Below, in pieces: positions 430 through 43,953 of a stretch of 64,000 nt of DNA (the stretch's first letter is position 1; the number at the start of each line of letters is the position of its first letter). The stretch is from a virus. The position numbers and the translations under genes are program-made. The DNA is taken from the IMG/VR virus record IMGVR_UViG_3300037418_004082. One strand, given 5' to 3'. The notes under the pieces were generated by a model. That model was given only the letters and a program-made list of their open reading frames with translations, made no database searches and was not told where the DNA came from.

Positions 430-709
430 CGAGACCCGGCGGAAGGTGGGCAAGGCCAAGGTCGTCCGCGACCGGGTCTGCAAGTGCTGCCACAAGCCCT
501 ACGCGTCCGTGCGCACGCCGGGTCCTCGCTGCGGGCCGTGCAAGCGTCGGTACGCGGAGGCCCAGAAGGAGCAGCGTCTCGCGCGGATGCCGGCATGGCT
601 GCAAGCGTTCGTGCTGCCGGAGATCCCGGCCAACCTCTCGCCCCTGGAGGGCCCGTCGCCGCTTAGGAGCCGGCGGCTTGGAAGGCAGCGCCTGGCCGAA
701 AGCGGTTAG
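422..709 (+). CDS. Small Zn-finger protein
   Basis: CKCC...RCGPC cysteine pairs, basic; overlaps the upstream stop. Confidence 0.6.
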   Translation: MANETRRKVGKAKVVRDRVCKCCHKPYASVRTPGPRCGPCKRRYAEAQKEQRLARMPAWLQAFVLPEIPANLSPLEGPSPLRSRRLGRQRLAESG

Positions 710-956
710 CCGGCGCGATCGCCTGGTGGAGCTGGCGCAGACCGACGGTCGTGTTGGAGTCGCTGCCCAGGTGCTTCTTGGCGAGGTTCGCCGCGCCGCC
801 CACGACGTTGGCCGCTCCCGCGTGCAGCTTCATCCCGACGTGCGCGACGGCGTGCCGGTCGATGTGCTGCGCCACGTCGAGGACATCGGAGGCGACGTTC
901 ACGAGCTGGCCGGCGTCGAAGGCGTGCTTGGCGAGGAAGACGTCGTAGGGACGCAC
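663..956 (-). CDS. Small putative internal head protein with MRP tag (97 aa)
   Basis: GTG start overlaps the stop of 956..1780 and reads MRPYDVFLAKHAF; this is the C-terminal part of the 663..1910 track ORF. Confidence 0.65.
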   Translation of the reverse strand: MRPYDVFLAKHAFDAGQLVNVASDVLDVAQHIDRHAVAHVGMKLHAGAANVVGGAANLAKKHLGSDSNTTVGLRQLHQAIAPANRFRPGAAFQAAGS

Positions 957-1780
957 TACGGCTCGCCGAAGACGAAGGTGTTGGCCTGGTTGCGCAGGAA
1001 GTAGATCGGCGCGTCGGTGCCCTCGCCGAACGGCACCAGGGCCAGGTACTCCACGCCGTGGCCGGCGGCCGCGTTGGCGGCGAGCTGCCAGACGTTCTTG
1101 AAGGAGACCTCGGTCTGCTGGCCGGCGCCGACGATGGCGGCGAACTCCAGGTTGAGCTTGGCGGGCGGCGTGGCCTGCGCGTCGGTGCGCACGCCCTGGC
1201 TGAACTTCATGCGGCCGATCACGCCCTCCGGGCCCTCCGCGGTGGGCTGCACGGCGTCCTCGTTGCGCTGGTAGAAGTCGGGGATCGCGACGATGTCCGT
1301 CAGGGTGGTGTCGCGGCCGATCACGAAGTCCGTGGCGTCGCTCACGCGGTCGAACACGTCCACCATGTTGCTCGCGCGCACGAACACGGCCAGGCCGTTG
1401 GCGTGCGCATACGCCACGGCGGCGTTCTGGTTGTCGCGCGAGCACAGCGGGTGCTCGAAGCCGAAGTCGTCGATGAACACGCCCGCGAGCGCGCTGCCGA
1501 TGGCGGCCTTCCACGCGTCCACCTGCGCCTCCCACGCGGGCAGGTCCAGGCTCGTGCCCAGGCTGGTGTAGCCGAAGAACTTGCCGATGGGGTTGTCCAC
1601 GCGGTAGGCGGCGGCCATCGACTTGAGGAAGTTCATCTCGCTGCCGGCCGCGAGCGGCAGGGCGGCCACGACCACGTCGAACTGCGCGAGCGCGCCCATC
1701 ACGGCGCCGGGGGTGGCGAGGCCGCCCAGGGTCGAGAGCGGACCGCGGAAGATCAGCAGGTTGTTCTTCGAGAAGGGCAT
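956..1780 (-). CDS. Putative TIM-barrel glycoside hydrolase-like protein
   Basis: Alternating beta/alpha pattern with KFFGYTSLG and LAGVFIDDFG, reminiscent of GH114/spherulin-4-type barrels. Confidence 0.45.
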   Translation of the reverse strand: MPFSKNNLLIFRGPLSTLGGLATPGAVMGALAQFDVVVAALPLAAGSEMNFLKSMAAAYRVDNPIGKFFGYTSLGTSLDLPAWEAQVDAWKAAIGSALAGVFIDDFGFEHPLCSRDNQNAAVAYAHANGLAVFVRASNMVDVFDRVSDATDFVIGRDTTLTDIVAIPDFYQRNEDAVQPTAEGPEGVIGRMKFSQGVRTDAQATPPAKLNLEFAAIVGAGQQTEVSFKNVWQLAANAAAGHGVEYLALVPFGEGTDAPIYFLRNQANTFVFGEP

Positions 1781-1791
1781 GGCGAGCCTCC

Positions 1792-2598
1792 TTACGGCGT
1801 GCGCGAGTAGAAGATCGAGATGGACTCACCCACCTGGGGCTTGTGGCCGTCGGCGATCGTGAAGGTCTTGCCGACGCGGGTCCACAGATCGCTGGGCAGT
1901 TCGATGGCACCGGAGATGAAGATGCGTGGCGCCGGGGTGGGGAAGACGGTCTGGCTGACCGTGAAGACGCCGTTGCCGTCGAAGCCGTCGGTGCTGTCCA
2001 CCACGCCCACGGGGGTCTCGCCTTGCATGAACGTCTGGTTGGGGCTGTCGTCCACCACGGTGCTGCCGTCGTCGGAGCCCACCTGCATCTCGATCACCTG
2101 AACCACCTCGCCCTCCTCGCGGCCGGTGGTGAACAGGATGTGCTGGTTGTCCTGCTCCGTGTAGTCGCCCTCGGCGAGCACGCTGCCGGAGAACACGAGC
2201 AACCGGTTCTGGCCCATCTGGTAGGTCTCGGGCTGGCCGCCCACGGTGAGCGCGAAGCTGGTCTGGCCGTCGGTCGCGACGATGGGGTCGTACTTCTTGA
2301 AGCGCACGCTTTTGAGGTCCAGCGCGGCCACGTCGGACGCGAGCTGGTTGAGCGTGACGGCGCCACCACCCGAGGTCGCGCCGATGCCCACGGAGCCTTC
2401 GAACACGACGTTGCCGAAGACGTGGAAGTCGTCGCCCACATGCAGGTGGCCGTCCGGGCCCAAGCGCATCAGCTTGTCGGCGGCCGACAAGCTGCCGGGC
2501 TCGCCGGAGTCCGCGATCTTGAAGCCGTGGATCGCGACGGACGACGACGCCTTTCGCTGGACGTGGTTGTGGATCGTGACGAACATCTTGCCGAACAT
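1792..2598 (-). CDS. Virion structural protein with small beta-sandwich repeats (collar/fibre-like)
   Basis: Modules ATDGQTSF...GDY...ILF...EGEVVQV and ...PQVGESISIFY match the type in 28228..29727. Confidence 0.55.
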   Translation of the reverse strand: MFGKMFVTIHNHVQRKASSSVAIHGFKIADSGEPGSLSAADKLMRLGPDGHLHVGDDFHVFGNVVFEGSVGIGATSGGGAVTLNQLASDVAALDLKSVRFKKYDPIVATDGQTSFALTVGGQPETYQMGQNRLLVFSGSVLAEGDYTEQDNQHILFTTGREEGEVVQVIEMQVGSDDGSTVVDDSPNQTFMQGETPVGVVDSTDGFDGNGVFTVSQTVFPTPAPRIFISGAIELPSDLWTRVGKTFTIADGHKPQVGESISIFYSRTP

Positions 2599-3059: not shown

Positions 3060-3121
3060 GCTGACTTCTCCCCGGTCCGTCTACCTTGATCATACGCCGG
3101 AGGGGTCCAGCGTCCCCAAGG

Positions 3122-3580: not shown

Positions 3581-3582
3581 GG

Positions 3583-4143
3583 CTATTCCTCCATGCGACG
3601 CGCGACGTCGCGGTAGTAATCGAGGGCCGACTGCTTTTCGAAGCTGAAGCCATTCTGCGAGGGCAGGTGGTACATGGGCGGTTGGGGCGGCGTTGGCGCG
3701 GGCGGGTGCACGGCATCCATCACGGCCTTGCCGGCCAGCCCGACGCCCGCGGCGTTGCCCGCCCACATCACGCCGCGCTGGACGGTCAGCTTGTTGCCCT
3801 TGGTGGAGTCCATCATGTTGATGGGGTTGAACATGCCCCCGGGGCCCTTGAGCTTCTCCGCGCCGTACTCCTTGCCGGGACCCCAGTTCATGAAGCCGCG
3901 AACCATGTCGTCGCCGCTACGCCCCGCGCGTCGCATCTGCGAGCCCGTGGTGATGAGCTTCTGCCCTACGCCCGTCGCACCCATGCCGCGCAGACCCTGG
4001 CCCGCCCATCGTGCAACGTGGCCCGCGGCGCCCGCGAGCGACGGGATCATCGTGGCCGCGCCCATGCCATTGGCGACGCCGGCCAGGGCGCCCAGGAAGG
4101 CTTCCTTCTCCAGCTCCTGCATGTAGAACTCGTGCGGCCTCAT
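3583..4143 (-). CDS. Gly/Ala-rich putative internal head protein with MRP tag (186 aa)
   Basis: Starts MRPHEFYMQELEKEAF after a GGAGG SD; hydrophobic Gly-rich segments; second motif EKQSA near the C-terminus. Confidence 0.7.
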   Translation of the reverse strand: MRPHEFYMQELEKEAFLGALAGVANGMGAATMIPSLAGAAGHVARWAGQGLRGMGATGVGQKLITTGSQMRRAGRSGDDMVRGFMNWGPGKEYGAEKLKGPGGMFNPINMMDSTKGNKLTVQRGVMWAGNAAGVGLAGKAVMDAVHPPAPTPPQPPMYHLPSQNGFSFEKQSALDYYRDVARRMEE

Positions 4144-10042: not shown

Positions 10043-11314
10043 ATGTTCGACGCTTACGACGCTTACTTGGCCATGCAGCAGAAGCAGGCCGCCGACGCTC
10101 TGGTCCCCGGTCAGGTGGGCATGGGCCCGACGCCCGGCGTCACCGGCATGCTCGACTCCGACGGTGGCGCCGCGGAGAACTCGGCCATCGCCAACCAGCG
10201 CGCCGCCATCCAGGAAGCCGCGCTGATCCAGGGCAACGCCGATGCCGGCGCCGGCTACTCGACGCCCCCGGCGGCCCAGAGCCCCTCGCTGCAGATGGAG
10301 AACGACGTCAAGGCCGCGTTCGTCATCGACCACGCGATCAACATGGCCGAGGACATGTACCTCGACTGGAAGCTGTCGAAGGTCGCCGCGACCGACGAGC
10401 AGAAGGCTCACGCCAAGGCCGTCATGAAGGCCAACCTCGCCGGCCCCGAGCGCTCCTACGGCGCCCACAACCGCGGCACGGCCCCCACCGGCTACCAGCA
10501 GGTGCAGTCGGCGATGGAGTCCGCGCACGCCAACGCGTTCCCCAACCAGAACGCCGGCCGCCCCGCCGTCCTGGGCAACGGCCCGCAGCAGCTCGAAGGG
10601 CTGGAGCGCCTGGCCGCGACGATGGGCCCCGACCACGGCCCCAACCTGGCGCAGCGCGCCGGTGCCGCCCTGGCCGGTCTGCCCGCGAAGGCGTGGAGCG
10701 CCATCAACCACAACACCGCCACCCGCGCGGGCGCGGCCGGCGTCGCCGCCCTGGGTGCTGCCGGCGCGGGTTACGCCGCGGCGCAGAGCCAGAAGGCCGC
10801 CTCGTTCAACGGCTACACGCTGCAGAGCCCCCTGAAGCAGACCCTGGGCCGCCGTGCCATGGGCATCGTGGACGGCGCCACCCAGACCGTGCAGAACATC
10901 GCCTCCAACGTCTCGCTGCCCCAGGTTGCGGGCGCGGCGATGCTGGCCGGCGGTGGTGCGGCGGCGGGCTACGCCGCGGCGCAGAACACCGACCTGGACA
11001 AGGCGGCCTCCGTGCTGGGCCAGGCTCGCGACATGGCGGTGGCCGGCTACGGTCGGGCGCGCCAGGCGGCGGGCTCCGCCTACGGCACCGCGGCGGAGTT
11101 CGTGAACGACCACCAGTTCGCGGCCGGCGCCGCGGCGGGTGTGGGCGCGGGCGTCGCCGGCCAGATGGCCGCGCAGGCCGCTGCCCAGCAGATGGGCCTG
11201 GCCCGTCCGCAGAACCCCAGCCTGGCGGCCCAGAAGGAAGCCTCGCTGGCCTACGCGGAGAACGCCGGCATCGAGTTCGCGCTGGCCTACTTGAACGGCC
11301 AGGTCAAGCTCTAA
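10043..11314 (+). CDS. Ala/Gly-rich putative internal head (ejection/core) protein
   Basis: N-terminus MFDAYDAYLAMQQKQAA; motifs KVAA, KAAS, KEAS; repeated AGYAAAQ glycine-zipper segments. Confidence 0.7.
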   Translation: MFDAYDAYLAMQQKQAADALVPGQVGMGPTPGVTGMLDSDGGAAENSAIANQRAAIQEAALIQGNADAGAGYSTPPAAQSPSLQMENDVKAAFVIDHAINMAEDMYLDWKLSKVAATDEQKAHAKAVMKANLAGPERSYGAHNRGTAPTGYQQVQSAMESAHANAFPNQNAGRPAVLGNGPQQLEGLERLAATMGPDHGPNLAQRAGAALAGLPAKAWSAINHNTATRAGAAGVAALGAAGAGYAAAQSQKAASFNGYTLQSPLKQTLGRRAMGIVDGATQTVQNIASNVSLPQVAGAAMLAGGGAAAGYAAAQNTDLDKAASVLGQARDMAVAGYGRARQAAGSAYGTAAEFVNDHQFAAGAAAGVGAGVAGQMAAQAAAQQMGLARPQNPSLAAQKEASLAYAENAGIEFALAYLNGQVKL

Positions 11315-11779: not shown

Positions 11780-13192
11780 ATGCACACCGACACCTCCATG
11801 GAGAAGCGTTACGCGCTGACCGACGACGCCTTCCTGGGCGCCGACGAGCAGCGCTCCGTCGTCTTGGCGGCGGGTCCGCGCGGCCTGGAGGTGGACGACC
11901 GCTTGTCGCGCGGCCAGGTGAAGACCGCGGCCGCCGAAGAAGCGATCGCGGAAGCCCTGACCATCAAGCCCGTGAAGGGCCGCATCTACCTGCTCGTCGT
12001 CGGCCTGGGCGCCCGCGAGTCGTGGGGCGACAACAACAACGGCGACGCCTTCCCGCGCAACGCCCTCCTGGGCCTGCCGCCGGCTGACGTCGTGATCGCC
12101 TTCTTCGATCGCTATAAGAGCCGCATCAAGCCGGGCTGGGGCTACAAGACCTTCCTCAAGGGTCACGTGTTCCAGGAGCACCGCAACACGAACCCGACGC
12201 TCGCGATCGGCGGCATCCACGCGACGTTCTGGAACAACCGCATGCAACGCGTCGAGAACCTCATCTGGATCGACCGCGTCAAGGGCAAGAAGTGGGCCGA
12301 TCGCGCGGACGCTGGCGGCATCGTCGGCACGTCGATGGCGTGTCGCGTGCCGTTCGATCGTTGCAGCGTGTGCGGCAACCTGGCGCCCACGCGCAACCAA
12401 TACTGCGTTCACCTGAAGCCGCGCAACCCGTTGTTCGAGCTGCGTAAGATCCGCGACGACGGCACGTCGGTCGCGATGATCAACGACTTCCCGCACTTCT
12501 TCGACGAGAGCTGCGTGGAGACACCGGCCGCGCCGGAGGCCCTGCAGATCATGAAGGTGGCCTCGGCCAACACGCTGCCGATCAAGGGCGCCGCCACCAA
12601 GCTCGCGGAGATCAAGAAGACCGGCCCCGATCTGCCGGTGGACGTGCTGTACGACGACTTCCACAGCCTATACGGCACGGAGGCGCCGATCCCGTCGATG
12701 GTCCTGGAGCAGCTCCGCCAGTACAACCTGCCGGAAGTGGTCGAGGGCTTCAAGAGCGCGGGCATGGCCTTGCGGCCCAGCGAGCTGTTCACCCTGTGCT
12801 TCGGCGATCAGGCCATCGAGCCCAAGCTGGCCTCCATCGTGGACGCGGCCGTGCTCGACGTGGAGCCCAACGGCCAGGGCGTGCACGTGGCGCAGGACAA
12901 GATGGTCATCAAGGCCGCCGGCCTCGTGAACCCGAACAACGTGGCGCGTGTCCGCCAGCTCATCGCGCCGTTCATCGAGAAGCGTTCGTACGACGAGCCG
13001 TACTTCACGAAGCGCCTGTGGCAGAGCTACACGAAGCGCGCGAGCGTGTCGCGTGTCTTCACGCCGCCCGACGAGTTGACCACCAACCTGCTGCGCGTGT
13101 ACCACGGCTTGTACAAGCACGCCTGCGGCGAGTACGGCTACGGCCTGACGCACGTGAACCGCGTGCACGAAGGCTACCACGGGAGTCTGTGA
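11780..13192 (+). CDS. Prohead (capsid maturation) protease with Zn-binding insert
   Basis: HVFQEH (catalytic His candidate), GTSMAC (Ser candidate), then CSVCGN...YCVHL; sits upstream of the scaffold and capsid genes; N-terminal VKTAAA. Confidence 0.7.
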   Translation: MHTDTSMEKRYALTDDAFLGADEQRSVVLAAGPRGLEVDDRLSRGQVKTAAAEEAIAEALTIKPVKGRIYLLVVGLGARESWGDNNNGDAFPRNALLGLPPADVVIAFFDRYKSRIKPGWGYKTFLKGHVFQEHRNTNPTLAIGGIHATFWNNRMQRVENLIWIDRVKGKKWADRADAGGIVGTSMACRVPFDRCSVCGNLAPTRNQYCVHLKPRNPLFELRKIRDDGTSVAMINDFPHFFDESCVETPAAPEALQIMKVASANTLPIKGAATKLAEIKKTGPDLPVDVLYDDFHSLYGTEAPIPSMVLEQLRQYNLPEVVEGFKSAGMALRPSELFTLCFGDQAIEPKLASIVDAAVLDVEPNGQGVHVAQDKMVIKAAGLVNPNNVARVRQLIAPFIEKRSYDEPYFTKRLWQSYTKRASVSRVFTPPDELTTNLLRVYHGLYKHACGEYGYGLTHVNRVHEGYHGSL

Positions 13193-13530
13193 TGCGCCCG
13201 ATCGACGTGTACATGACCATCAAGGCCGCGTCGAACGACGGCATGGACCCCACGCACCCTGACGTTCTGCGCCCCAAGATCGATGCCGCGAAGGACTACC
13301 TCACGCGCAACCAAGGTCACATGGCGCACTCGGCCGCCAACAACGTGCTTTACGGCCTGCTCTCCAACCCGCGTGGCGTGGGCCCGGCGTCGATCCTTGG
13401 GTCGAGCACGGGCGGCGTCCTCGACGGCATGCTCATGCGTCCGGTGACGGATGCCGGGATCGAGTTGGTGGGGCGCGGTTTGCGAAAGTTCTATGGTTTG
13501 GGCGAGAAAACAGCGTCCGTCGATAATTAA
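13192..13530 (+). CDS. Small putative internal head protein with MRP tag (112 aa)
   Basis: TGATG overlap with the protease; MRPIDVYMTIKAAS, ends EKTASVDN. Confidence 0.7.
   Translation: MRPIDVYMTIKAASNDGMDPTHPDVLRPKIDAAKDYLTRNQGHMAHSAANNVLYGLLSNPRGVGPASILGSSTGGVLDGMLMRPVTDAGIELVGRGLRKFYGLGEKTASVDN
13522..13528 (+). promoter_or_regulatory. Candidate late promoter GATAATT
   Basis: 23 nt upstream of 13552. Confidence 0.6.
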
Positions 13531-13551: not shown

Positions 13552-14124
13552 ATGTCCGGCACCGCTTACCTGCAAACCCTGATCGCCCAACTCGCCGACG
13601 GCCCGACCACCACGAAGGTCGCTGCCGAGGACGAAGATAAGAAGGGCGACAAGAAGAAGTCCGACAGCAAGGACGACGACAAGAAGGGCGGTCGCGCGTT
13701 CTTCGAGAAGATGCGCGGCAAGAAGGACGACGACAAGAAGAAGTCGGACGACAAGGACAAGGACGAGAAGGAGAAGAAGGCGAACCAGGATGCCGTCCTG
13801 GCCATGATCGCCGACCTCCCCGACGATCTCAAGAAGCTGGCCGCCGCGCAGGCGGAGTCCGAGTTCCTCCTCGAACTGGCCCAGATGAACGCCGGCCTGA
13901 CGGTCCAGAAGCAAGCCTCCGCCCAGGCGCCCGCTCTCGACGAGCGCGTCCTGTTCAACGCCGCCTACGAGGAGCACACCGCCAAGCTCGCGGCCCTCGA
14001 CCCGGAGTACGGCGCGGCGCTCGACGCCCAGCAGGAGAAGATGGCCTTCAACCAGGGCTTCAACGACACCCTGGCGGCCATCAAGGCGGGCGTCAACCCG
14101 TTCGCCGCGTTCGCGGGGCAGTAG
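13552..14124 (+). CDS. Putative scaffold/core protein, paralog 1, with Lys/Asp-rich tract
   Basis: KVAA, a K/D low-complexity region, and the KLAALDPEY domain. Confidence 0.65.
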   Translation: MSGTAYLQTLIAQLADGPTTTKVAAEDEDKKGDKKKSDSKDDDKKGGRAFFEKMRGKKDDDKKKSDDKDKDEKEKKANQDAVLAMIADLPDDLKKLAAAQAESEFLLELAQMNAGLTVQKQASAQAPALDERVLFNAAYEEHTAKLAALDPEYGAALDAQQEKMAFNQGFNDTLAAIKAGVNPFAAFAGQ

Positions 14125-14126
14125 CC

Positions 14127-14360
14127 ATGCACTACGAGCAGGCCGTCGCCCAGAACGCCTTCTGGGACACCTTGATCCAGCAGAAGCAGGCCGCCGTCCA
14201 GGATGCCTTCTTCCAGGATCTCTTCACCGCAACGGTGGAGAACCACACCGAGAAGCTCGCCGCGCTCGACCCGGAGTACGCTGCGGCCCTCGATCAAGAG
14301 CAGCAGAAGCAGGCGTTCCTGCAGGGCTTCAACGCCGTGCTCCAGAACGCCGCCGTCTAA
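14127..14360 (+). CDS. Putative scaffold/core protein, paralog 2
   Basis: KQAAVQ...HTEKLAALDPEY...AFLQGF. Confidence 0.7.
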   Translation: MHYEQAVAQNAFWDTLIQQKQAAVQDAFFQDLFTATVENHTEKLAALDPEYAAALDQEQQKQAFLQGFNAVLQNAAV

Positions 14361-14378
14361 GGGGAGCAAAGAGCCACC

Positions 14379-14630
14379 ATGTCCACCTTCTTCACCTCGT
14401 TGATGCAGCAGTACCAGGCCCAGGTCGAGCAGGAGAAGCAAGCTGCCGTCCAGGAGGCGGAAGCGTCTGCCGACCTGTTCGACGGCGTCTTCTACGACCA
14501 CACGGCCAAGCTGGCCGCGCTGGACCCGGAGTACGCCGCGCACCTGGAGAGCGAGCACCAGAAGGCCGCTGCGTTCCAGGCGGGCTTCGACGCCGTGATC
14601 GCGCAGGCCCAGCAGTTCGGGGTGCAGTAG
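14379..14630 (+). CDS. Putative scaffold/core protein, paralog 3
   Basis: KQAAVQ...HTAKLAALDPEY...AFQAGF. Confidence 0.7.
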   Translation: MSTFFTSLMQQYQAQVEQEKQAAVQEAEASADLFDGVFYDHTAKLAALDPEYAAHLESEHQKAAAFQAGFDAVIAQAQQFGVQ

Positions 14631-14631
14631 C

Positions 14632-14844
14632 ATGCCGCGCTCCTGGGCCGAAGAGCGCGCCCAGCTCCTCGACGACGCGCAGACCCTGTTGAAGGAGGCC
14701 AAGGCCACCTTCGAGCAGGTGCTGCCGGCGATGGAGCAGAACACGCTCGACCCGCAAGCGTTGATCCTGCAGAAGCAGGCCACCATCTTCAAGAACCTGA
14801 AGAAGGCGGAGCTGTGGCAGACGCTCGGAAACCCGCAGGCGTAG
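14632..14844 (+). CDS. Small helical head-module protein
   Basis: Closely coupled ORF containing QKQAT. Confidence 0.6.
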   Translation: MPRSWAEERAQLLDDAQTLLKEAKATFEQVLPAMEQNTLDPQALILQKQATIFKNLKKAELWQTLGNPQA

Positions 14845-14848
14845 CGCG

Positions 14849-28227: not shown

Positions 28228-29727
28228 ATGACCTTCAACGCACGCGACATCGGGTTCGGCCCCGCGGGCATCTCGGTGAGCGGCCGTGCGTTGCCCGCTT
28301 TCGTGGAGCCCGCGCGCATCACGAACGACACCACGCCCTACCCCCTGCAGCGCGAGGTGCTCACCGTCGGGCTGACGCACCAGGTGCGCTTCAACCTGGC
28401 GGCCGCGCCGCCGCCGGGCGCCGTCAAGAGCCTGGTGGTGGGCAAGCTCACGTACTTCGAGCCCGACTTCGAGATCGTGGGCAAACGCCTCGTGTGGAAA
28501 CGAGGCGTGCTCCCGCTGGGCACGACGCTCGTGTTCGAGGCCGTCGGCACCGATCAGGTGCACCGGCGTCTTGACGTCGTCCCGGTCCTGACGCCGGGGC
28601 AGACGACGTTCGAGCTGTTCGCGCCGCCCGCGGGCCCGCCGGAGGTGTACGTGAACGGCCTGCGTTACGATGAGCGCGCCTTCACCGTGCGAGGCCGCAC
28701 GATCCACTGGCACGAGGCCCTGGTCCCCGGGGCTCGCTTCGTGGTGGTCTACCCCATCACGCCGGAGGGCGCGCATCTCTACCAACTTGACACCGTTCCC
28801 TTCGGTCCGCAGCACGGGTCGAACGTCGAGCTGTCGATCGAAGCACTCGACACCCTGTCGTTGCGCGTGTACTTCCGTGGTCAGCGGCTCACGCCGTTGG
28901 TGGACTACGCCGTGTCGCTCGACCAGTTGACGATTCTGACGCCCTTGGAATCGGTACATGGTGACCTGCTACAGGTCGCCATTCCGACGTCCTCGACGTT
29001 CTTCCAGGCCACCACGACGGATCGCGAGTTTCCGACCCAGGTGTTCACGAAGGCAAACGCCGTCGTCACGGCACCGGGCACGACGGTGGCCTTGCCCAAC
29101 CCGGGCGACACGAGCGTGCTGTCGGTCAACGGCCTGATGTACGCGGAGAGCAAGGGCTACACCCGCACCCCGTCGGTCCTGACCTGGGCGGATGCGTCCC
29201 TGACGTTGGCCGCGGGCGACGAGTTCAGCCTGCTGGGCTTCAACACACCCGACGCGCTGCACGTGCGCGAGTTCAACGGCCAGGTGGGCTACCCCACCTT
29301 CGACCTGGGCGAGAAGGCCGCGGACATCCGCAAGAGCCTGGTGTTCGTCTCCGCGGGCGCCAGCTACGGCGGCGAGCTGTACGCGGGCCGCCAGTACCTG
29401 TCCTTCCCCTCCGACCACGAGGTCGCCTGGACCGGCCCGTTCCCGCTCAAGGCCACCGATCGCGTGGTCGTGGTCTACCTGCGCTCCCCGGCACTGGCCG
29501 GCGCGCTGACCATCGAGACCCACCAGGTGACCATGGCGGAAGAGGGTCAGCCCTTCGCCCGCCGGATGAAGCGCGCCCCCAAGGAGCCGTCGGCCGTCGT
29601 GGCGGCGCTCAATGGCGCGCGGCTGGTGAGCCCCAAGAACTTCACGGTGAACGATGACGCCTTCGTCTACCTCGACCACGACGTGCCGCTCGCGGTCGGC
29701 GACGTGATCACCCTACTTTACCGGTAG
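28228..29727 (+). CDS. Structural protein of repeated small beta-sandwich modules
   Basis: About six repeats of V(Y/F)xNG...(Y/F)...GD...(Y/L). Confidence 0.65.
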   Translation: MTFNARDIGFGPAGISVSGRALPAFVEPARITNDTTPYPLQREVLTVGLTHQVRFNLAAAPPPGAVKSLVVGKLTYFEPDFEIVGKRLVWKRGVLPLGTTLVFEAVGTDQVHRRLDVVPVLTPGQTTFELFAPPAGPPEVYVNGLRYDERAFTVRGRTIHWHEALVPGARFVVVYPITPEGAHLYQLDTVPFGPQHGSNVELSIEALDTLSLRVYFRGQRLTPLVDYAVSLDQLTILTPLESVHGDLLQVAIPTSSTFFQATTTDREFPTQVFTKANAVVTAPGTTVALPNPGDTSVLSVNGLMYAESKGYTRTPSVLTWADASLTLAAGDEFSLLGFNTPDALHVREFNGQVGYPTFDLGEKAADIRKSLVFVSAGASYGGELYAGRQYLSFPSDHEVAWTGPFPLKATDRVVVVYLRSPALAGALTIETHQVTMAEEGQPFARRMKRAPKEPSAVVAALNGARLVSPKNFTVNDDAFVYLDHDVPLAVGDVITLLYR

Positions 29728-29881
29728 GCTTTTGCTCCTCCGGCTGCTTGGGCCGGGGCAGGAAGTGGTGGATCAGCGGCATGGCCAGGTCGTCGGCCAT
29801 GTGCACGAGACCGCCCAGCGCCTTGGGCGCCCCTTCGGCATCCATGGCGGTCTTGGCGAGGTAGAGTTCGTACGGGCGCAT
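29708..29881 (-). CDS. 57-aa putative internal head protein with MRP tag (absent from ORF track)
   Basis: GAGGT SD then MRPYELYLAKTAMDAEG...KVG; directly downstream of the portal. Confidence 0.65.
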   Translation of the reverse strand: MRPYELYLAKTAMDAEGAPKALGGLVHMADDLAMPLIHHFLPRPKQPEEQKPTGKVG

Positions 29882-29890: not shown

Positions 29891-31945
29891 CTAGATCGGC
29901 GGGTTGGCGCGCTTCGGCGGGCCGCCCTGCGGCAGGGGCTTCTCGTTGCCGCCCTTGCCCGGGGTCTGGCCGTTCACGCCGCCCTGGCCGGGCTTGGCGT
30001 TCGGACCACCCTGCTGCTGGGCTTGCCCGGCCTGGCCGAAGACGGGCTGGACGTTGAACTGCGCGAGCACCTGGTTCATGATCGCGGCGGCCAGCGGGTT
30101 GGTCTGCTCCATCTCCTGCATGGCCTGATCGCGCGCCGCCGGGTCCATGCCCGCCAACTGCTGGGCCTGGCCCTGGATGACGGCCGGATCGGTCTGCATG
30201 CGCGTCTGGAGCTGACGCGCGAGGGCCGGGTTCTGGCTCGACAGGCGCTGGATGGCACCCTCGGCGTCCTTGGGCTTCATCTTGCCCAAGACGCCGTAGA
30301 GCTGCTCCACCTGCTCGTGCGGGACGGTCGGCCCCGCCATGCCCGACTCCGGCGGCATGGCGTTCTGCAGCATGCTCTGGATGCTCTGGGCGCGCGTCGC
30401 AGCCTCCGCCGTCGCCTTCGCGTCGGAGAGTGCCTTGTCGAGGTTCTCCGCGAGGCGCTTGCGCTGCTCGTCGTCGTAGTCGAAGTCGTTGACCTGGCCC
30501 AGGTAGTTGCCGCTGATGGCACCCGCGCTCCACATCTGGAAGATGAGCGACTTCTGCTGCACGTCGTCCGCCATCTTGAACGGGAGCATGTCCACGTCAA
30601 CCTCTTCGAGGCTCGTAATCTCGCTGATGCGCTTCGCGACCCACTGGAACAAGTTGATGATGCCGTTCACCTGGTTGAGCAGGCTGTTCTCCAGCATGCG
30701 CAAGCTGACGCTCGTGCCGGTGTACTGCAGGCCGCCCCGCACGAACTCCACCGGCGCGTTCAGCGCGTTGATGATGTTGTCTTCCGTCTGCTGCATCTCG
30801 GCTTGCAGCATGAGCGCCTTGCCCTGGCCGCCCATCTGGTCGTGAGCGATGGGGATCGGGCTCACCATGATGTAGAGCGGATCCTTCTTCCACTTCTTCA
30901 GCTCCGTGCTGAAGCGCTTGCGCCAGTCGAGCAGATCGATGGGGATGGCCGTGTTGGCGCCGGTGTCCGTGCCGGGGAACACGATGCGCAAGGGCATGAT
31001 GTGCTCCAGCAGCAAGGAGAGCTGGGCGCGCTTCATCATGTTGAGGTAGAAGATGTCGCGCAGCGCCGCGATCGTGTTCGGCATGCCCCACGCGGTCTCC
31101 GTGCCGGGCAGATCCATGCTCATGCGCGCCAGGTGGTACAGGTTGCTCTTGCGGAACTTGATGCGCGGCTTGGCGTTGCGGCCCTTGGTGAGACGCGCGG
31201 CCGTGATGACGTCGATCGGCGTGTTGATCAGGCGCAGGCGGTTGCCGTCCTTGATCTTCTGGATCTCCTCGTCCGGCACGGAGTAGTAATACTCCACCTG
31301 GCCGGAGTACGGGTCGTAGTCGATGTCGAAGTTGCCCGGGTAGTAGGTGATCAGCGTCACCCGGCGCCAGTCGGAGACGAGCACGTCCTTGATCCGCGCG
31401 GCGCCCTTCTTGCCGCACTTCGGGCAGTACAGGATGAACTGCAGGTTCGGACGGTCCCAGTCCCACTTCGCGGTCTTGGCGCGCTCTTCGGCCTTGCAGT
31501 GCTTGCAGACGAGGTGACGGTCGAACGGCTGGTACACGCTCACCATCACGTTGCCGTACGCCTGGTAGTTCATGCCACACTTCATGGCGAACTCGCGCGC
31601 CTTGATGTGGTCGAAGATGTCTTCCCACGTCGTGACGAGTTCCTTCTTCGCGTCAAGGTGCTCACGGTAGTCCTTGTCGTTCTCGTTCTTCGAGATGCGC
31701 GGCGTGAAGGTGAACTTCGTGATGGGGTACTCCGCCAGCTTCTCCACGGCGGGGTTGATGGAGCTGTTCGTGATGATCGCGTAGGCGCTGAAGCGCATCA
31801 GCTCCTTGACGGTCTTCGGCAGGAAGAACGCCTCGAAGTTGAAGAACTGGCTCTGGTTCAACAGGGCCTGCTGCATCATCAGCGTGTTGCCGCCGACCAT
31901 GAAGTCGCCGGTGATGTCGTCGTTCTGGGGCGAAAGCCAACTCAT
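29891..31945 (-). CDS. Portal protein (684 aa)
   Basis: Portal-like order NPAVEKLAEYPIT, CGMNYQAYGN, WGMPNTIAALRDIFY, MGGQGKALM, ALNAPVEF; Zn-ribbon insert; Gln-rich tail. Confidence 0.7.
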   Translation of the reverse strand: MSWLSPQNDDITGDFMVGGNTLMMQQALLNQSQFFNFEAFFLPKTVKELMRFSAYAIITNSSINPAVEKLAEYPITKFTFTPRISKNENDKDYREHLDAKKELVTTWEDIFDHIKAREFAMKCGMNYQAYGNVMVSVYQPFDRHLVCKHCKAEERAKTAKWDWDRPNLQFILYCPKCGKKGAARIKDVLVSDWRRVTLITYYPGNFDIDYDPYSGQVEYYYSVPDEEIQKIKDGNRLRLINTPIDVITAARLTKGRNAKPRIKFRKSNLYHLARMSMDLPGTETAWGMPNTIAALRDIFYLNMMKRAQLSLLLEHIMPLRIVFPGTDTGANTAIPIDLLDWRKRFSTELKKWKKDPLYIMVSPIPIAHDQMGGQGKALMLQAEMQQTEDNIINALNAPVEFVRGGLQYTGTSVSLRMLENSLLNQVNGIINLFQWVAKRISEITSLEEVDVDMLPFKMADDVQQKSLIFQMWSAGAISGNYLGQVNDFDYDDEQRKRLAENLDKALSDAKATAEAATRAQSIQSMLQNAMPPESGMAGPTVPHEQVEQLYGVLGKMKPKDAEGAIQRLSSQNPALARQLQTRMQTDPAVIQGQAQQLAGMDPAARDQAMQEMEQTNPLAAAIMNQVLAQFNVQPVFGQAGQAQQQGGPNAKPGQGGVNGQTPGKGGNEKPLPQGGPPKRANPPI

Positions 31946-32715
31946 GGTGCGATCTCTTTCAGCAGCTCGTGATGCAGGTGGTCCACGTGGGCGTCGATGG
32001 CGGCCAGGCGCGAGCGCTGGACGTCGGCCGCCGGGGAGGGCAGTTGCTTGCGCACCTGGTGCGCCACCACCCGACCCACGTCGCTCGACAGGTGGTCGAG
32101 CGCCGGCTGACAGTCGGCCAGCTCGTGCGGGCAGCAGACGAGGCCCGCCCGGTGGAGCTGCACAGCGATGTACGCCTTGACCTCTTCGCTCAAGGGCGTC
32201 AGCCGGTCGATAACCCGCATGAGCCGGTGAGCCCACGCGATCTCGTGCGGGTCCAGCTCCTGCGTCAAGGTGAAGTCCACGGGCCGCCCGTTGAAGGCCA
32301 CCGCGGCCTTCTCGAACATGTGCCAGTGCTCGAAGACGTCGGGGTCGTAGAGCGTCTGGCGGGCGAACAGGAGGCTCGTGGTCTCGTGGGCGGTCAAGCC
32401 CAATGATTCCATCAGCGTTTCGGGCTCGTACTGCACCCAGACGGGCCCCAGCTCGCGTTCCGCGCGAACGGCCAAGCCCAGGGCGGTGCCGGCGGGCCGG
32501 GCGGCCTGCTTCTGGACCCCGGGCTGTTCGAGGTGCTGGACGCCGGACGTCAGCAGCCGCGCGCCCACGCGCTCGGCCACCGCCTTGCGGTCGCGCGACG
32601 AGTCCAGCAGGTCCGCAACCGACTTGAGGCCGGAGACCACCTGCTGGACCTGCTGCTCGCGTTTCGCGCGCTCCGCTTCGTCCGGCGCGCCGGGGACGCT
32701 AGGCGTGGGGAGCAC
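31942..32715 (-). CDS. Hypothetical head-module protein
   Basis: Coupled to the portal; contains QKQAA. Confidence 0.65.
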   Translation of the reverse strand: MLPTPSVPGAPDEAERAKREQQVQQVVSGLKSVADLLDSSRDRKAVAERVGARLLTSGVQHLEQPGVQKQAARPAGTALGLAVRAERELGPVWVQYEPETLMESLGLTAHETTSLLFARQTLYDPDVFEHWHMFEKAAVAFNGRPVDFTLTQELDPHEIAWAHRLMRVIDRLTPLSEEVKAYIAVQLHRAGLVCCPHELADCQPALDHLSSDVGRVVAHQVRKQLPSPAADVQRSRLAAIDAHVDHLHHELLKEIAP

Positions 32716-33748
32716 GCGCGCTGACCAGCAGCATGCGCTGCTGCGGAAGCTCCAGCTCCGCGAGCGCCGCCGCGAACTTGCGCATGTTGCCCCGCACCGC
32801 GAACGCGCCGGGCGCGATGTCCGCGAGCACGTGGTCCGGGATGCCGTGCACGATGTCCTGCAGCGCCATGTGGACGCCCGCGAGCTTGACGTTGGCGGGG
32901 TACATGTCCTCGTCCACCGGGCGGTACGCGATGGCCGGCAGGCCGATCAGACCGACGGCCTGGTCGAAGCCCGCGAGCTTGTCGAGCGTCGCGTAGGCGT
33001 CCCAGAACTCCGCGCCCAGCTCCTCGTCGTGTGCGAGCTTGCACAGCTCGTTGTACGCCGTCATGAAGCCGTCGTCGAAGCGGTGCACGGGACGGTACGC
33101 GTGCGGCAGGTCCACGTTGCGGGCGCTCGCCGCCTTGCGCAGCCCGTCGAGGTGCGCGGCCTCGTCGTGGTTCTGGCGGATGATTGCGACGCGCTGGCGC
33201 ACGGAGTCGATGACGTGCGACCGCTTCACGGCTTGCGCGGCCTGCTTCACGATGGCCGGCACCGGGATGTTGGCCTCGGTCAGTACCTCGTCGAGCACGG
33301 CGGCGGTCTTGTGGACCTCCTCCAGCGGCAGCTCGTTCGGCCGGAAGCTGTGCGCGGACGCGTAGGCCGCCTGGACCTCCGTCATCACGGGCGCCTCCGA
33401 CGCCGCCTTCTGCACCGGCTCCTCCAGCATGGGGAGGATGATGTCCTCCACACCGTGGATCGCGGCCGCGTACTTGATCTGGTCGCGGACGAAGTTGCGG
33501 TCGTCCACGTTGCCGATCTGGGAGGCGGTCTTCGTGAAGTAGAAGGCCGCCAGCCAGGTGTCCGCGGCCGTGTCGCAGGCGAACTTCTTGAGCTTGGGCC
33601 AGGCGTACAGGGTCTTCTCGGCGCGCGTGGCCTCGCCCGGGGCCTCGGCGGCCGCCTTCACGAACTCCGGGATGGCGGACTCGCCGTGGTCGTGGATGTG
33701 CCGGGTCAGCACCGCGCTGGTGGTGTCGTCGTGGTAGTCGAACAGCAT
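32699..33748 (-). CDS. Putative head protein rich in K-x-A motifs (349 aa)
   Basis: MLFDYHDD start; VKAAA, TKTAS, QKAAS, HKTAA, VKQAA, RKAAS, VKLAG. Confidence 0.7.
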   Translation of the reverse strand: MLFDYHDDTTSAVLTRHIHDHGESAIPEFVKAAAEAPGEATRAEKTLYAWPKLKKFACDTAADTWLAAFYFTKTASQIGNVDDRNFVRDQIKYAAAIHGVEDIILPMLEEPVQKAASEAPVMTEVQAAYASAHSFRPNELPLEEVHKTAAVLDEVLTEANIPVPAIVKQAAQAVKRSHVIDSVRQRVAIIRQNHDEAAHLDGLRKAASARNVDLPHAYRPVHRFDDGFMTAYNELCKLAHDEELGAEFWDAYATLDKLAGFDQAVGLIGLPAIAYRPVDEDMYPANVKLAGVHMALQDIVHGIPDHVLADIAPGAFAVRGNMRKFAAALAELELPQQRMLLVSARAPHA

Positions 33749-40700: not shown

Positions 40701-40707
40701 GAGGTAC

Positions 40708-41334: not shown

Positions 41335-41336
41335 CC

Positions 41337-42944
41337 GTGCGCGAAGTCCTTCAAGCCATCCACCAGCAGGAGCAGCTCGGGGCACCACCCGGCGCCTACA
41401 CCGGACGCGTCGGTCGGACGGGCGGGGCCAAGGGGGTCCCCGACCGTTGGGTCGTGCTGCAGGACGTCCGGGCGGCGGATGGTCAGCCCGTCACCGATCA
41501 CGTCTGGTTCCCGGCCACGCACGAGTTCGCGCCTTACGCCCACGGCGAGCGGGTGCGCTTCGTCGCCAAGGTCAACCCCTACTTCAAGGGGCCCAGCCAC
41601 GCCCGCGAGCTGGACTACGCGTTCAGCCGACCCAAGGAGGTCATGAAAGCCGCCATGCTGCAATCTGGAGAGCCCGGCTACGCCCGTCTGTTCGCCGCGC
41701 GCTTGCGCAACCGCCTGGGCCAGGGCGACGCCTCGACGTGGGCGATCGAGCAGGAGTATAAGGCGGCCATGGAGATGAACCCCGACGCCCAGCGCAAGCT
41801 CAACGCCCTGGAAGGCTCCGAAGGCGGGTGCTTCGCCGACGGGGTGATGGAGGCGGCCAAGGAGCTGGCACGCGCGGCCGGTCGCGACCTCGTGCTACCG
41901 GAGGACGTGGTGGCGGCCGTCCGTCAGACGCCCAAGGAGGCCAGCCTGTACCGGGCCAAGATCCTCGCCAACCAGGCACTCGCACCGCACGAGATGGATG
42001 GCTTCCACGCGTTGCTGGACCGCTTCACGCGCCTCAAGGCCCGCCAGCAAGGCTTCGGTCCCGACACCCTGATCGAGGGCGGCTACGCGCACAACCCGGC
42101 GTCGAAGTCGAACTTCGTGGGCTTCAACGTGAGCCACGGCGAGCAGGCAGAGCGCGGCGGTGGCCGCTTCACGGTGCAGCACCACGTGGGCGACCCGACC
42201 GAAGGTGTGACCGACTGGCTCGCGACGGCGGAGGCCCACCGTGGGCAAGGCCAAGCCAAGCGCACGGCCGCGCTGATGGACGACGTGATGGCCGCCATGG
42301 GAGCGCGTCGCCTGGTCAGCCGACCGCAGCACCCGGCCGTCGCCAAGTACCGGGCCCAGATGGGCTACAAGCCGGGCGGCAACCCGTTCATGGGCGAGGC
42401 GGAGAAGTACGTGCCGGACACCCCGGCCGTGGCCCGGGACCGGGCGCGCTTCAAGGAGGCCGCGGAGAAGGCGCCGACGCGTGACGACTGGAAGACCCGG
42501 CCGGGCGTGCGCGCCATGGTCACTGACAGCGACGGCAAGGTGCTCCTGCTGCGTCGCCCCGACGACGAGGAGTTCCACCCCGGCACGTGGAACCTGCCGG
42601 GCGGGGCCAAGGAGGACGACGAGACCTTCCTGAACGGCGCGCTGCGCGAGCTGAAGGAGGAGACCAACCTCGACGCCTACCCGACCAGCCAGGCCCACGA
42701 GTTCAAGTTCCCGGGCGGCATGGGCAAGGCGTTCATGATGAGCCTGCGGGACGGCGCCAAGCTGAAGCTGGATCCGCGCGAGGTGGACGAGGCCGGCTGG
42801 TTCTACCCGGACCACCTGCCCAAGAAGCTCTTCCCGCAGACCGCGAGCACCGTCAAGGCGCTCTTGAAGTTGCAGGCTTCCCGCGAGAAGTCTGCCGGTT
42901 TCCGCCCGTACGAGGTGTACCTGGGCACGTACTTCCACGAGTAG
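41337..42944 (+). CDS. Multidomain protein: OB-like, histone-fold-like, GNAT acetyltransferase, Nudix hydrolase
   Basis: Nudix box GGAKEDDETFLNGALRELKEETNL; GNAT motif A HRGQGQA and AKYRAQMGY; FADGVMEAAKELARAAGRDLVLPEDV. Confidence 0.75.
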   Translation: MREVLQAIHQQEQLGAPPGAYTGRVGRTGGAKGVPDRWVVLQDVRAADGQPVTDHVWFPATHEFAPYAHGERVRFVAKVNPYFKGPSHARELDYAFSRPKEVMKAAMLQSGEPGYARLFAARLRNRLGQGDASTWAIEQEYKAAMEMNPDAQRKLNALEGSEGGCFADGVMEAAKELARAAGRDLVLPEDVVAAVRQTPKEASLYRAKILANQALAPHEMDGFHALLDRFTRLKARQQGFGPDTLIEGGYAHNPASKSNFVGFNVSHGEQAERGGGRFTVQHHVGDPTEGVTDWLATAEAHRGQGQAKRTAALMDDVMAAMGARRLVSRPQHPAVAKYRAQMGYKPGGNPFMGEAEKYVPDTPAVARDRARFKEAAEKAPTRDDWKTRPGVRAMVTDSDGKVLLLRRPDDEEFHPGTWNLPGGAKEDDETFLNGALRELKEETNLDAYPTSQAHEFKFPGGMGKAFMMSLRDGAKLKLDPREVDEAGWFYPDHLPKKLFPQTASTVKALLKLQASREKSAGFRPYEVYLGTYFHE

Positions 42945-42950
42945 GTTCGT

Positions 42951-43628
42951 ATGTCCCAGGTTAGCCGCTGGTCAGCGCGTCGTGACGACATCGTTCATCT
43001 CTTGAAGAACGGCATGTCGATCGCGGAGCTGGCCGAAACATACGGTGTTAAACCCAAGCACATGCGACGCGTGTTGCTACGAATGCACATCGACGCGTGC
43101 TGGCTGCGTAACAAGTATTGGGCCAATGTGCGTAATCTGCGAGCATTGATGGAGTCTGGTTACAGCCGTACGCAGATTGCACACCTGTACCACGTGGACG
43201 AGAACCTGGTCGAGAAGTACCTCAAGTTCCACGACCTGGATCCGCGTGATCCCGTGACCAGGTTCAAGGCCAAGTTGGCGGTTCGGGAGAACGGCTGCAT
43301 CGAGTGGACCGGGTACGTCGAGAAGGCGTCCGGCTACGGCGTGTTCACGTACAAGACGGGAACGCGTGATTATTTCTATGCGCACCGCTTCAGCTTCGTG
43401 CTGCAGCGCGGGGACATCCCGGCGGGGATGACGCTCGACCACACCTGCGTCAACAAGCGGTGCGTGAACCCGGACCACCTGGAGGTGGTGACCGCCTCGG
43501 AGAACAGCAAGCGCATGCACGCCCGCCGGAACATGCTCTGCGAGATCGCCAAGCGGCTCCTGCAGTCGGAGTACCCCTTCGTAGACCGGATCGCCCTGTT
43601 GGACCCCCTCACCCCCGGAGGTAGCTAA
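42951..43628 (+). CDS. HNH endonuclease with N-terminal HTH (free-standing homing type)
   Basis: CIEWTG...GYG...AHRFSF...LDHTCVNKRCVNPDHLEVVTASEN; MSIAELAETYGV HTH. Confidence 0.85.
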   Translation: MSQVSRWSARRDDIVHLLKNGMSIAELAETYGVKPKHMRRVLLRMHIDACWLRNKYWANVRNLRALMESGYSRTQIAHLYHVDENLVEKYLKFHDLDPRDPVTRFKAKLAVRENGCIEWTGYVEKASGYGVFTYKTGTRDYFYAHRFSFVLQRGDIPAGMTLDHTCVNKRCVNPDHLEVVTASENSKRMHARRNMLCEIAKRLLQSEYPFVDRIALLDPLTPGGS

Positions 43629-43629
43629 A

Positions 43630-43953
43630 ATGCGCCCTGCAATCGTCTATCTATTGTTGAAGGAAGCCTCCGATCAGGCCCCCGTCGCTCCCCCGCCGCT
43701 CGACCTGATGGTCGTCGGCTCCGACGTGAAGGGCCACCTGGCGGCCCGGTCCAAGGGCTACGTCCCGCTCGTCCTGCTGGGCGAGGAAGGCCAGGAACCG
43801 ACGCACCTGGTCTACACCCACCGCCGGGGGTACAACGCCGCCGTGCACGCCCTGCACGCGGACCGGTCGTCCTTCATGGCGCACGCCCGCGGGCTGCTGG
43901 CGCCGCCCACCCCCACCCCTGGGGGTAACCCCTTCTTGCCGGCGCAGGCGTAA
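43630..43953 (+). CDS. Small protein with MRP tag
   Basis: MRPAIVYLLLKEAS; last gene before the terminator. Confidence 0.65.
   Translation: MRPAIVYLLLKEASDQAPVAPPPLDLMVVGSDVKGHLAARSKGYVPLVLLGEEGQEPTHLVYTHRRGYNAAVHALHADRSSFMAHARGLLAPPTPTPGGNPFLPAQA

Follow-up and report, generated by a model that had tools for sequence, protein, structure and literature searches.

A short aromatic peptide beside Lys-x-Ala motifs on unrelated proteins of an uncultured phage: a possible tag for loading cargo into the capsid

The window analysed here, a stretch of 64,000 nucleotides (64 kb) from the genome of an uncultured phage, raises the question of why otherwise unrelated proteins on both strands carry a common short peptide, and whether this peptide could bring them into the phage head. 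The genome is 153 kb long, with 65% G+C and 189 called genes. With its own multisubunit RNA polymerase, and with Salmonella phage Arash as the closest isolate, the lineage is outside the T4-like group, as an earlier sequence-only reading had assumed. At the nucleotide level, no close relative turned up in the phage collection, and the comparison with the whole of Arash showed core genes as the only shared genes. Whether the small tagged proteins belong to the virion can therefore not be read across from Arash. Two related contigs, G1 and G2, were used for the comparison of orthologues.

About ten unrelated proteins carried a common peptide of 10–16 residues, an SNF2 helicase and a Nudix protein among them. 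Gene g92 (97 aa; 663..956, minus strand) began with a GTG that overlapped the stop codon of the gene before it, and its tag, codons 1–12 (921–956), ended in L-A-K-H-A. The g97 protein (186 aa; 3583..4143, minus strand; ATGA overlap, GGAGG site) had a Gly/Ala-rich hydrophobic body behind a tag of codons 1–16 (4096–4143) ending in L-E-K-E-A, and its G1 and G2 orthologues showed a variant tag. The start of g108 (112 aa; 13192..13530, plus strand) overlapped the stop of the protease gene; its tag (codons 1–14, 13192–13233) ended in T-I-K-A-A-S and was retained in G1, G2, and L029–L031. The short g127 (57 aa; 29708..29881, minus strand), directly after the portal gene, had an AGGAGG site and a tag of 12 codons (29846–29881). 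For g92 and g127, the comparison by position with G1 and G2 gave no orthologue. The tag of g142 (107 aa; 43630..43953, plus strand; GGAGG site) occupied codons 1–14 (43630–43671) and ended in L-L-K-E-A-S. Orthologues of g142 had variant tags, and in G2 the tag was internal to a fused ORF. The Ala/Gly-rich head-module protein g105 (423 aa; 10043..11314, plus strand), preceded by a GATAAT promoter-like motif, had a variant N-terminal tag lacking MRP, four K-x-A-[AS] sites, and a C-terminal tail of 22 residues behind K-E-A-S. In g140 (535 aa; 41337..42944, plus strand), an OB-like/GNAT-like/NUDIX protein, the tag was C-terminal (residues 522–535, nt 42900–42941), with K-S-A-G immediately before it. 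The SNF2 helicase (518 aa), the sixth MRP start, lay at genome position 79634, 3.9 kb upstream of the window. A glycine-zipper protein (genome 71484–72389) had a tag copy at an internal Met, and a weaker variant was located at genome 36552. The small tagged glycine-zipper proteins are probably membrane-active. Searches of the small tagged proteins against Pfam and PHROGs gave no matches.

The sequence-only reading had listed five MRP starts, at 956, 4143, and 29881 on the minus strand and at 13192 and 43630 on the plus strand, together with the variant at 10043 on the plus strand. All six were real, in frames showing the coding signature of the genome (GC1>GC2, GC3 0.84–0.94). The list itself was incomplete, because the helicase, the internal Met, the C-terminus, and the weaker variant also belong to the set. 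M-R-P starts were found in six of the 189 called genes, where 0.57 were expected (Poisson P about 3e-5), and an identical aromatic pattern followed downstream in 6/6. After removal of the leaders, the tagged proteins gave no similar pair (best BLASTP E 0.24), in agreement with their being otherwise unrelated. A scoring matrix trained solely on helicase N-termini of other phages, and thus independent of this phage, was run over all 44,262 positions of the proteome. The seven best-scoring positions were tag positions: five N-termini, one C-terminus, and one internal Met. These results show that the tag is terminal-specific, portable between unrelated proteins, and conserved as a peptide. The proposed N-terminal leader was a portable one, in the late/virion gene region, but it also occurs at C-termini and inside ORFs.

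The MRP triplet itself did not hold as the conserved consensus. In the G1/G2 orthologues and in helicase homologues from a wide lineage, the conserved core was x-P-[YF]-x-x-[YF]-hydrophobic followed by K-x-A-[AS], and MRP is a local version of a wider motif. A single internal tag with K-x-A on both flanks was observed in G2, and separate C- and N-terminal tags in G1 and G0. Every tag adjoined K-x-A-[AS/G], always on the cargo side, at N- and C-terminal tags alike, which bears out the earlier claim that the leader ends in K-x-A. Glu was absent at the border in several tags.

The border motif was enriched 2–5 times in this genome, with K-x-A-[AS] counted 44 times against 14.2 ± 3.6 expected. The z value was 5.7, rising to 8.7 with Q/E preceding. 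The controls (the reversed motif, Arg and Glu versions, T4 and phiKZ motifs) were flat; [LIM].E gave z 1.6, no enrichment, and [SAG].E was slightly depleted (z −1.9). Across 66 related head-module loci, K-x-A-[AS] occurred 1135 times against 189 ± 11 expected (6 times), and the reversed motif 174 times. By zone, the N-terminal count was 269 against 33 expected and the C-terminal count 121 against 20 expected. At the level of sequence, these counts show that K-x-A-[AS] marks the head-module proteins of the whole lineage, and that the mark depends on its direction and on the Lys. The papers searched, which did not include the primary phage G capsid paper, described no Lys-x-Ala prohead-protease motif and gave no trimming site for the phage G capsid protein.

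In the head module, the scaffold-like genes g109–g113 (13552..15784, plus strand) were rich in K-x-A-[AS], and three paralogues among them finished in a short tail behind a K-x-A site. In the major capsid protein g115 (315 aa; 16408..17355, plus strand), residues 1–12 were hypervariable, but further on K-x-A-[SN] at residues 33–36 was near-invariant, including K33 and A35. The portal protein g128 (29891..31945, minus strand) matched Arash gp204 with an E value of 6e-72. The g130 protein (349 aa; 32699..33748, minus strand) contained six K-x-A-[AS] sites against 0.24 expected, at positions conserved in G1 and G2, and is a candidate core or scaffold protein that would be cut into pieces.

The prohead protease, g107 (470 aa; 11780..13192, plus strand), had its catalytic domain at about residues 51–262 and matched the PHROG head maturation protease with an E value of 9e-7. 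Searched by sequence against PDB chains, it gave no match. His134, Ser185, and Asp193 were invariant among the homologues. The domain edges carried K-T-A-A (48–51) and K-V-A-S (259–262); K48/A50 and K259/A261 were at least 90% conserved over 80 proteases of 17% mean identity, and L-x-K-V-A-S ended the catalytic domain in 79/80 homologues. A conserved tag-like segment was also present inside the protease, near residue 330. The best match of the protease model was T4 gp21 (5jbl_B; Z 9.8, rmsd 3.1 Å over 130 residues, 20% identity), and model residues 64–262 matched the Pseudorabies, HSV, HCMV, KSHV, and EBV proteases with Z values of 6.5–8.8. Foldseek alone gave weak hits (E 0.03–0.09), and the gp21 match was clear with the second aligner only. 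The predicted structure shows g107 to have the gp21/assemblin fold. K259–S262 sat in a confidently modelled strand; a structural role, instead of cleavage, could account for the K-x-A motifs that border the protease domain and for the one in the N-arm of the capsid protein.

We lean slightly towards a removable docking tag for head assembly, by which cargo would be loaded into the capsid. In the scheme that we infer, from tag binding and encapsidation to the cut and its exact scissile bond, the tag would be a short amphipathic aromatic helix attached to its cargo via the K-x-A-[AS] site. It would bind a component of the procapsid interior, either the scaffold/core or the inner face of the capsid shell, and so trap non-structural cargo in the prohead. 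The SNF2 helicase, the Nudix/GNAT protein, and the small glycine-zipper proteins are the proposed cargo. The gp21/assemblin-fold protease would then cut at K-x-A, and the cargo would remain in the head and be delivered with the DNA. Assemblins cleave after Ala, with Ser/Thr next (PMC4498786), and by this analogy a cut after Ala is likelier than one at Lys. For the earlier proposal of a K-x-A code in place of a Glu code, the Glu-type motifs of T4 and phiKZ were not enriched, and the cut would probably lie after Ala.

To our knowledge, experimental proof of capsid-targeting tags exists only for T4 and for P1 DarB, the latter lacking a consensus. The T4 capsid-targeting sequence (CTS) is carried by IPI, IPII, IPIII, and Alt, and the prohead protease gp21 removes the leader. 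The peptide described here is similar in that a leader of about 10 residues is common to unrelated non-structural proteins, adjoins a motif that we assign to a gp21-fold protease, and would mark enzymes delivered with the DNA. The two also have a similar register (Met, basic, small, Tyr, Gln/Glu, x, aromatic, aliphatic, Ala). The resemblance noted earlier is modest: in the right register, the T4 CTS scores among the best 0.4% of positions and would take tenth place among the 189 N-termini, which is too weak for homology. The border here is K-x-A-[AS], whereas in T4 it is (L/I)-x-Glu, and unlike the T4 CTS the tag is also C-terminal and ORF-internal, in a phage with a multisubunit RNA polymerase and a 315-aa capsid protein. 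The T4 CTS is a precedent for a capsid-targeting leader (PMC8442874, PMC5694885).

A second comparison is with the herpesviruses. Herpesvirus assemblin releases its own protease domain at a flanking site and frees a short capsid-binding C-terminal tail. The protease fold matches here, K-V-A-S stands behind the catalytic domain, and many C-terminal tails follow K-x-A. Herpesvirus sites have an aliphatic P3 residue and no obligatory Lys, and we know of no N-terminal cargo tags in herpesviruses. In contrast, Lys would occupy P3 here, N-terminal cargo tags are present, and the hosts and virus realms are far apart. In phiKZ, SPN3US, and 201phi2-1, large phages with a virion RNA polymerase, a gp21-type protease processes many internal head proteins, and propeptides were proposed for targeting (PMC5694885). 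Most of those propeptides exceed 100 residues, and they lack a common consensus and end in (S/A/G)-x-Glu, unlike the tags of 10–16 residues in a genome where [SAG].E is not enriched.

A further comparison concerns the tagged helicase. In P1, the first 30 residues of DarB, a large enzyme with a helicase part, suffice for its loading into the capsid (PMC9024508); the tagged helicase has an N-terminal tag and matches DarB-like helicase families. The P1 Dar proteins have no common consensus and clipping of their signal is not known; here, about ten proteins share one consensus, which stands next to a site of protease type. A variant tag stood directly ahead of the helicase core in 74 helicase homologues, and the Arash helicase and distant members began at the core, without a tag. 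In the predicted structure, the tag helix had a pLDDT of 55 against 92–99 for the core, so that the tag is not packed. The leader as an integral structural element of the helicase was thus unsupported, being a low-confidence helix beside a well-modelled core. The promoter-like motif of the head and tail operons was also present on the tagged helicase. The one experimental link to the virion comes from Arash, where the homologue of the tagged helicase, Gp217, was abundant in virion preparations: its 38 peptides and 1148 spectra put it at a level close to that of the capsid protein (PMC10585845), within a list of 116 proteins for which the authors caution on carry-over of abundant enzymes. Weighing against the docking tag, Arash is tag-free, and several Arash head proteins showed 100% peptide coverage.

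A docking tag has to be weighed against a propeptide that only keeps proteins inactive or guides the protease and has no targeting role. The strength of the K-x-A signature on its own fits such a propeptide, as do the heterogeneous N-terminal segments, not one common tag, that distant relatives carry before the first site, and the processing of many head proteins without a common tag in phiKZ-type phages (PMC5694885). But the majority of K-x-A sites had no adjoining tag, so the protease needs none; the tag is unnecessary for marking the site and must serve another purpose. That one stereotyped aromatic helix recurs on unrelated cargo, N-terminally, C-terminally, and where domains join, implies that its carriers share a binding partner, and nothing else would bring enzymes such as the helicase and the Nudix hydrolase together with the prohead protease. 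We consider processing without targeting unlikely. That the partner is a non-capsid hub (the phage RNA polymerase, a chaperone, or the cell membrane), with the tag a short linear motif and K-x-A a coincidental helix cap, is suggested by the helicase gene, which lies inside the RNA polymerase cluster with another tagged gene just upstream, and by the Gly/Ala-rich, hydrophobic nature of several tagged proteins. Yet translation of g108 is coupled to that of the protease gene and translation of g127 to that of the portal gene, and other tagged genes are in the head module; the tag keeps to the cargo-side head-module motif at either terminus, and it is absent from the RNA polymerase subunits. Such a hub is improbable on this evidence.

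The peptide might also be a by-product of a nucleic-acid element, either a repeat that serves translation initiation or regulation or a trace left by recent recombination. The g127 and helicase tags were identical at 32/36 nt and diverged beyond the tag, and the g92 tag shared 28/36 nt, which suggests recent copying between genes. Against this, the tags encoded Arg by CGA, CGT, CGC, and AGG and Pro by three codons, placing the conservation at the peptide and not the DNA level. Orthologues of 45–65% identity kept the peptide pattern with residues and codons differing, the motif also occurred at C-termini and inside ORFs, and the regions upstream of tagged genes differed. On the codon variation, we rejected a DNA-level repeat as the cause of the shared starts, and a nucleic-acid element of any of these kinds is very improbable.

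If the docking tag is confirmed, injected proteins would become predictable from sequence by a rule that covers a large group of uncultured phages. The tag would be a candidate link between the maturation chemistries of phages and herpesviruses, and a 12-residue handle to load foreign proteins into high-G+C phage capsids. It would also place capsid-targeting logic in an unrelated, barely studied lineage, the Arash-like phages with a multisubunit RNA polymerase. A broader reading, which we hold only tentatively, is a two-part, orientation-free loading code, in which a portable aromatic docking helix at either terminus or between domains would be combined with a Lys-x-Ala code of the gp21/assemblin-fold protease, the latter common to thousands of uncultured phages. 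Such a code would unite two styles of capsid maturation in one system, that of T4 with its cargo tags at the N-terminus and that of herpesviruses with their Ala-Ser cuts and scaffold tails at the C-terminus, and the phage would inject a changeable kit of helicase, Nudix, and acetyltransferase-like enzymes and membrane-active peptides. The capsid protein of phage G had no clean K-x-A-[AS] near its start. The protease family comprised about 2,500 representatives at 50% clustering, and cultured phage G showed the same K-x-A pattern.

The six N-termini that the sequence-only reading had grouped under an MRP tag, at window 956 (−), 4143 (−), 10043 (+), 13192 (+), 29881 (−) and 43630 (+), were all located, each in a frame with a coding signature. 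The tagged ORFs mostly showed good ribosome-binding sites or translational coupling. Coupling to a landmark gene was seen twice, with the 13192 start overlapping the protease stop codon and the 29881 ORF beginning 9 bases behind the portal gene. A genome-wide scan detected a sixth M-R-P start 3.9 kb before the window, where a gene for an SNF2-type helicase (518 aa) is flanked by those for the reductase and the second polymerase chain. M-R-P starts numbered 6 among 189 genes, against 0.57 expected (P ~3e-5). After removal of the leader, no pair of tagged proteins was alike (best E 0.24).

The window represents bases 83575–147574 of one 153,476-bp virus record (G+C 65%), in which the 189 genes were called from a strong codon-position G+C signal. 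Its gene content includes a large terminase, a class II-like ribonucleotide reductase, and a multisubunit RNA polymerase, whose beta subunit is joined to the front of beta-prime while a further chain is separate. The closest isolate was Salmonella phage Arash, with ~30% protein identity; three Vibrio phages and Bacillus phage G matched more distantly. Comparison with Arash assigned the major capsid protein (window 16408–17355) and the portal (window 29891–31945, −), and a family match assigned the head maturation protease (window 11780–13192). Two syntenic related contigs, G1 (106 kb) and G2 (75 kb), encode proteins 45–72% identical to those of this virus. The large terminase orthologue of G2 (L007:3479–6310) aligned as two pieces ~1.2 kb apart (query residues 2–59 and 50–526), which suggests that the gene is interrupted by an intron, intein, or mobile gene. 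At window 5357, a one-base mismatch was observed between the window and the genome record.

A pattern search yielded two extra tags. One lay in the gene at genome 71484–72389 (L001:7485–8390), upstream of the RNA polymerase, behind an internal Met at residue 82 that has an AAGAGG site of its own. In G2, the two portions are encoded by distinct genes, and the tagged part (221 aa, with several glycine-zipper segments) begins at the tag; an internal start or a polyprotein may be involved. The other was at the extreme C-terminus of a 535-aa protein (window 41337–42944) with a Pfam NUDIX domain (E 3e-18) and weak similarity to acetyltransferases.

The leader as a class was kept on the G1 and G2 orthologues, but M-R-P did not hold as its conserved core, as positions 2 and 3 differ there. 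The constants were Pro or a small residue, an aromatic, an acidic or polar residue, any residue, Tyr/Phe, a hydrophobic residue, 1–6 further residues, and K-x-A-[AS]. The 10043 protein, which lacks M-R-P, carried the same class of leader in all three genomes. The helicase had 74 homologues from metagenomes (28–67% identity), and most of the closer ones carried the leader directly before the conserved start of the core. Others had different short N-terminal segments that still ended in E-K-x-A, whereas Arash Gp217 and several distant homologues started at the helicase core itself. The leader, being present, absent, or replaced among these proteins, is thus an evolving add-on. With a scoring matrix built from foreign helicase N-termini only, the top 7 of 44,262 proteome positions were five of the N-termini, the single C-terminal tag, and the one at the internal Met. 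AlphaFold modelled the helicase at a mean pLDDT of 92.7, with the leader as a helix (residues 3–11) at pLDDT 55 and the core at 92–99. The leader was not modelled as part of the fold, and the tag idea withstood a check that could have gone against it. Three helicase homologues (P0009, P0010, and P0020) were fused to a NUDIX domain, with the leader at the N-terminus of the fusion, and a NUDIX segment was also present within a PHROG portal family; in this lineage, Nudix hydrolases seem to recur as cargo of the head.

Downstream of the baseplate genes, the tag behaved as a movable module. In G2, a single ORF held one tag with a K-x-A site on either side, placed between an OB-like domain and a domain of the type found in the 107-aa 43630 ORF (window 43630–43953, +). 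In G1, two genes lay one base apart, the first ending in a K-A-A-S site and a C-terminal tag and the second opening with a different tag of its own. The OB-like domain of the window is joined to acetyltransferase-like and NUDIX domains, in a protein ending in K-S-A-G and the C-terminal tag. A HNH homing endonuclease gene (window 42951–43628, +; PHROG E 3e-34) separates this Nudix protein gene from the N-terminally tagged 43630 ORF. Since both flanking modules are adjacent or fused in the relatives, the HNH insertion may have helped to split a polyprotein at the tag. The aromatic pattern was kept independently in both C-terminal tags (G1 and window), which argues that these two work at that end. 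Over 36 bases, the helicase tag and that of the 57-aa ORF next to the portal gene agree at 32; the sequences diverge immediately afterwards, which suggests that the tag was recently transferred between genes.

The border motif K-[QAESTH]-A-[AS] occurred 44 times in the genome, against 14.2 ± 3.6 in within-protein shuffles. It was concentrated in the head module, the tagged proteins, and a 349-aa protein adjoining the portal operon, which had six sites (0.24 expected) at positions conserved in G1 and G2. K.A[AS] gave a z of 5.7, rising to 8.7 with a preceding Gln/Glu; in this genome, no departure from expectation was seen for its reversal, for versions with Arg or Glu, or for the T4 and phiKZ motifs. 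The signal was specific for Lys and for direction. K33 and A35 were nearly invariant in 15 capsid-protein homologues, after a hypervariable first dozen residues, and the Arash capsid protein showed the same feature near residue 27. Across 66 non-redundant viral loci with the protease (31–75% identity, 31–69% G+C), we counted 1,135 motifs against 189 ± 11 expected, and 174 reversed motifs. Enrichment was seen in the first 45 residues (269 vs 33) and the last 30 (121 vs 20). Of 64 non-redundant loci, 48 had a motif among the first 46 residues encoded by the gene that follows the protease. In cultured phage G, 10 sites (2.9 expected) were found around the protease gp19, the portal, and their neighbours. 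A module around K-L-A-A-L-D-P-E-Y was common to the three small paralogues g109–g111 (window 13552–14630, +), each of which terminated in a short tail behind a K-x-A site; the N-terminal half of g109 was also very Lys/Asp/Glu-rich. All three are scaffold candidates.

The protease family comprised 2,538 representatives, 1,640 of them at E < 1e-10. Among 80 members (17% mean column identity), His134, Ser185, and Asp193 were invariant, and K-x-A motifs at residues 48–50 and 259–261, at both edges of the catalytic domain, were at least 90% conserved; in the model they adjoined low-confidence linkers. The modelled catalytic domain (pLDDT > 93) best matched T4 gp21 (5jbl_B; Z 9.8, rmsd 3.1 Å over 130 residues, 20% identity), followed by herpesvirus assemblins (Z 6.5–8.8). 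Assemblins cleave after Ala before Ser/Thr, freeing their own protease domain and the C-terminal capsid-binding tail of the scaffold (PMC4498786). Cleavage of this kind is consistent with K-x-A being followed by A/S, with the site conserved immediately behind the catalytic domain, and with the abundance of short tails at C-termini. By analogy, the scissile bond would lie after the Ala, and K-x-A-[AS] is probably the site of this protease. A conserved tag-like helix, G-M-x-L-R-P-S-E-L-[FY] after K-x-[AL]-G, was observed in the C-terminal domain (residues ~325–341, window 12770–12810); it may dock the protease itself or be a built-in mimic.

The simplest model covering all the results would be a docking peptide joined to its cargo through a protease site, in the manner of the T4 capsid targeting sequence. 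We infer such loading and clipping as a whole with slightly better than even confidence. Most K-x-A sites had no adjacent tag, so it is not the tag that designates a site for cutting; a propeptide serving processing only is unlikely. The constancy of the tag across unrelated cargo proteins argues for a shared binding partner; a motif for another partner, unrelated to the capsid, is less probable still. The codons within the tags vary (Arg CGA, CGT, AGG, and CGC; Pro CCT, CCC, and CCG), indicating that selection acts on the peptide, and a nucleic-acid element is very improbable.

The docking peptide does resemble the T4 sequence, as proposed, though only to a modest degree. The latter has ~10 residues and is cleaved once, the cargo remaining in the head (PMC8442874, PMC5694885), whereas here the probable cleavage code, the freedom of tag position, and the lineage differ; the likeness may be convergent. 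The published literature that could be searched yielded neither an account of a prohead code based on Lys-x-Ala nor, beyond T4 and P1, a shared cargo tag.

Virion proteomics of Arash recorded 38 unique peptides and 1,148 spectra for the helicase homologue Gp217, on a par with the capsid protein (1,333 spectra) and the second polymerase chain (1,210); the authors cautioned that highly abundant enzymes could be carry-over (PMC10585845). A GATAAT-type promoter-like motif was confined to 32–107 kb of our genome. It preceded the head, tail, and polymerase operons and the 10043 gene, and directly preceded the tagged helicase. The matrix scan showed no good tag in the ~100 genes of the other regions. 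Just 15 nt separate the GATAAT motif at genome 79619 from the start codon of the downstream helicase; the helicase mRNA would therefore have a very short leader or none, without a Shine-Dalgarno site.
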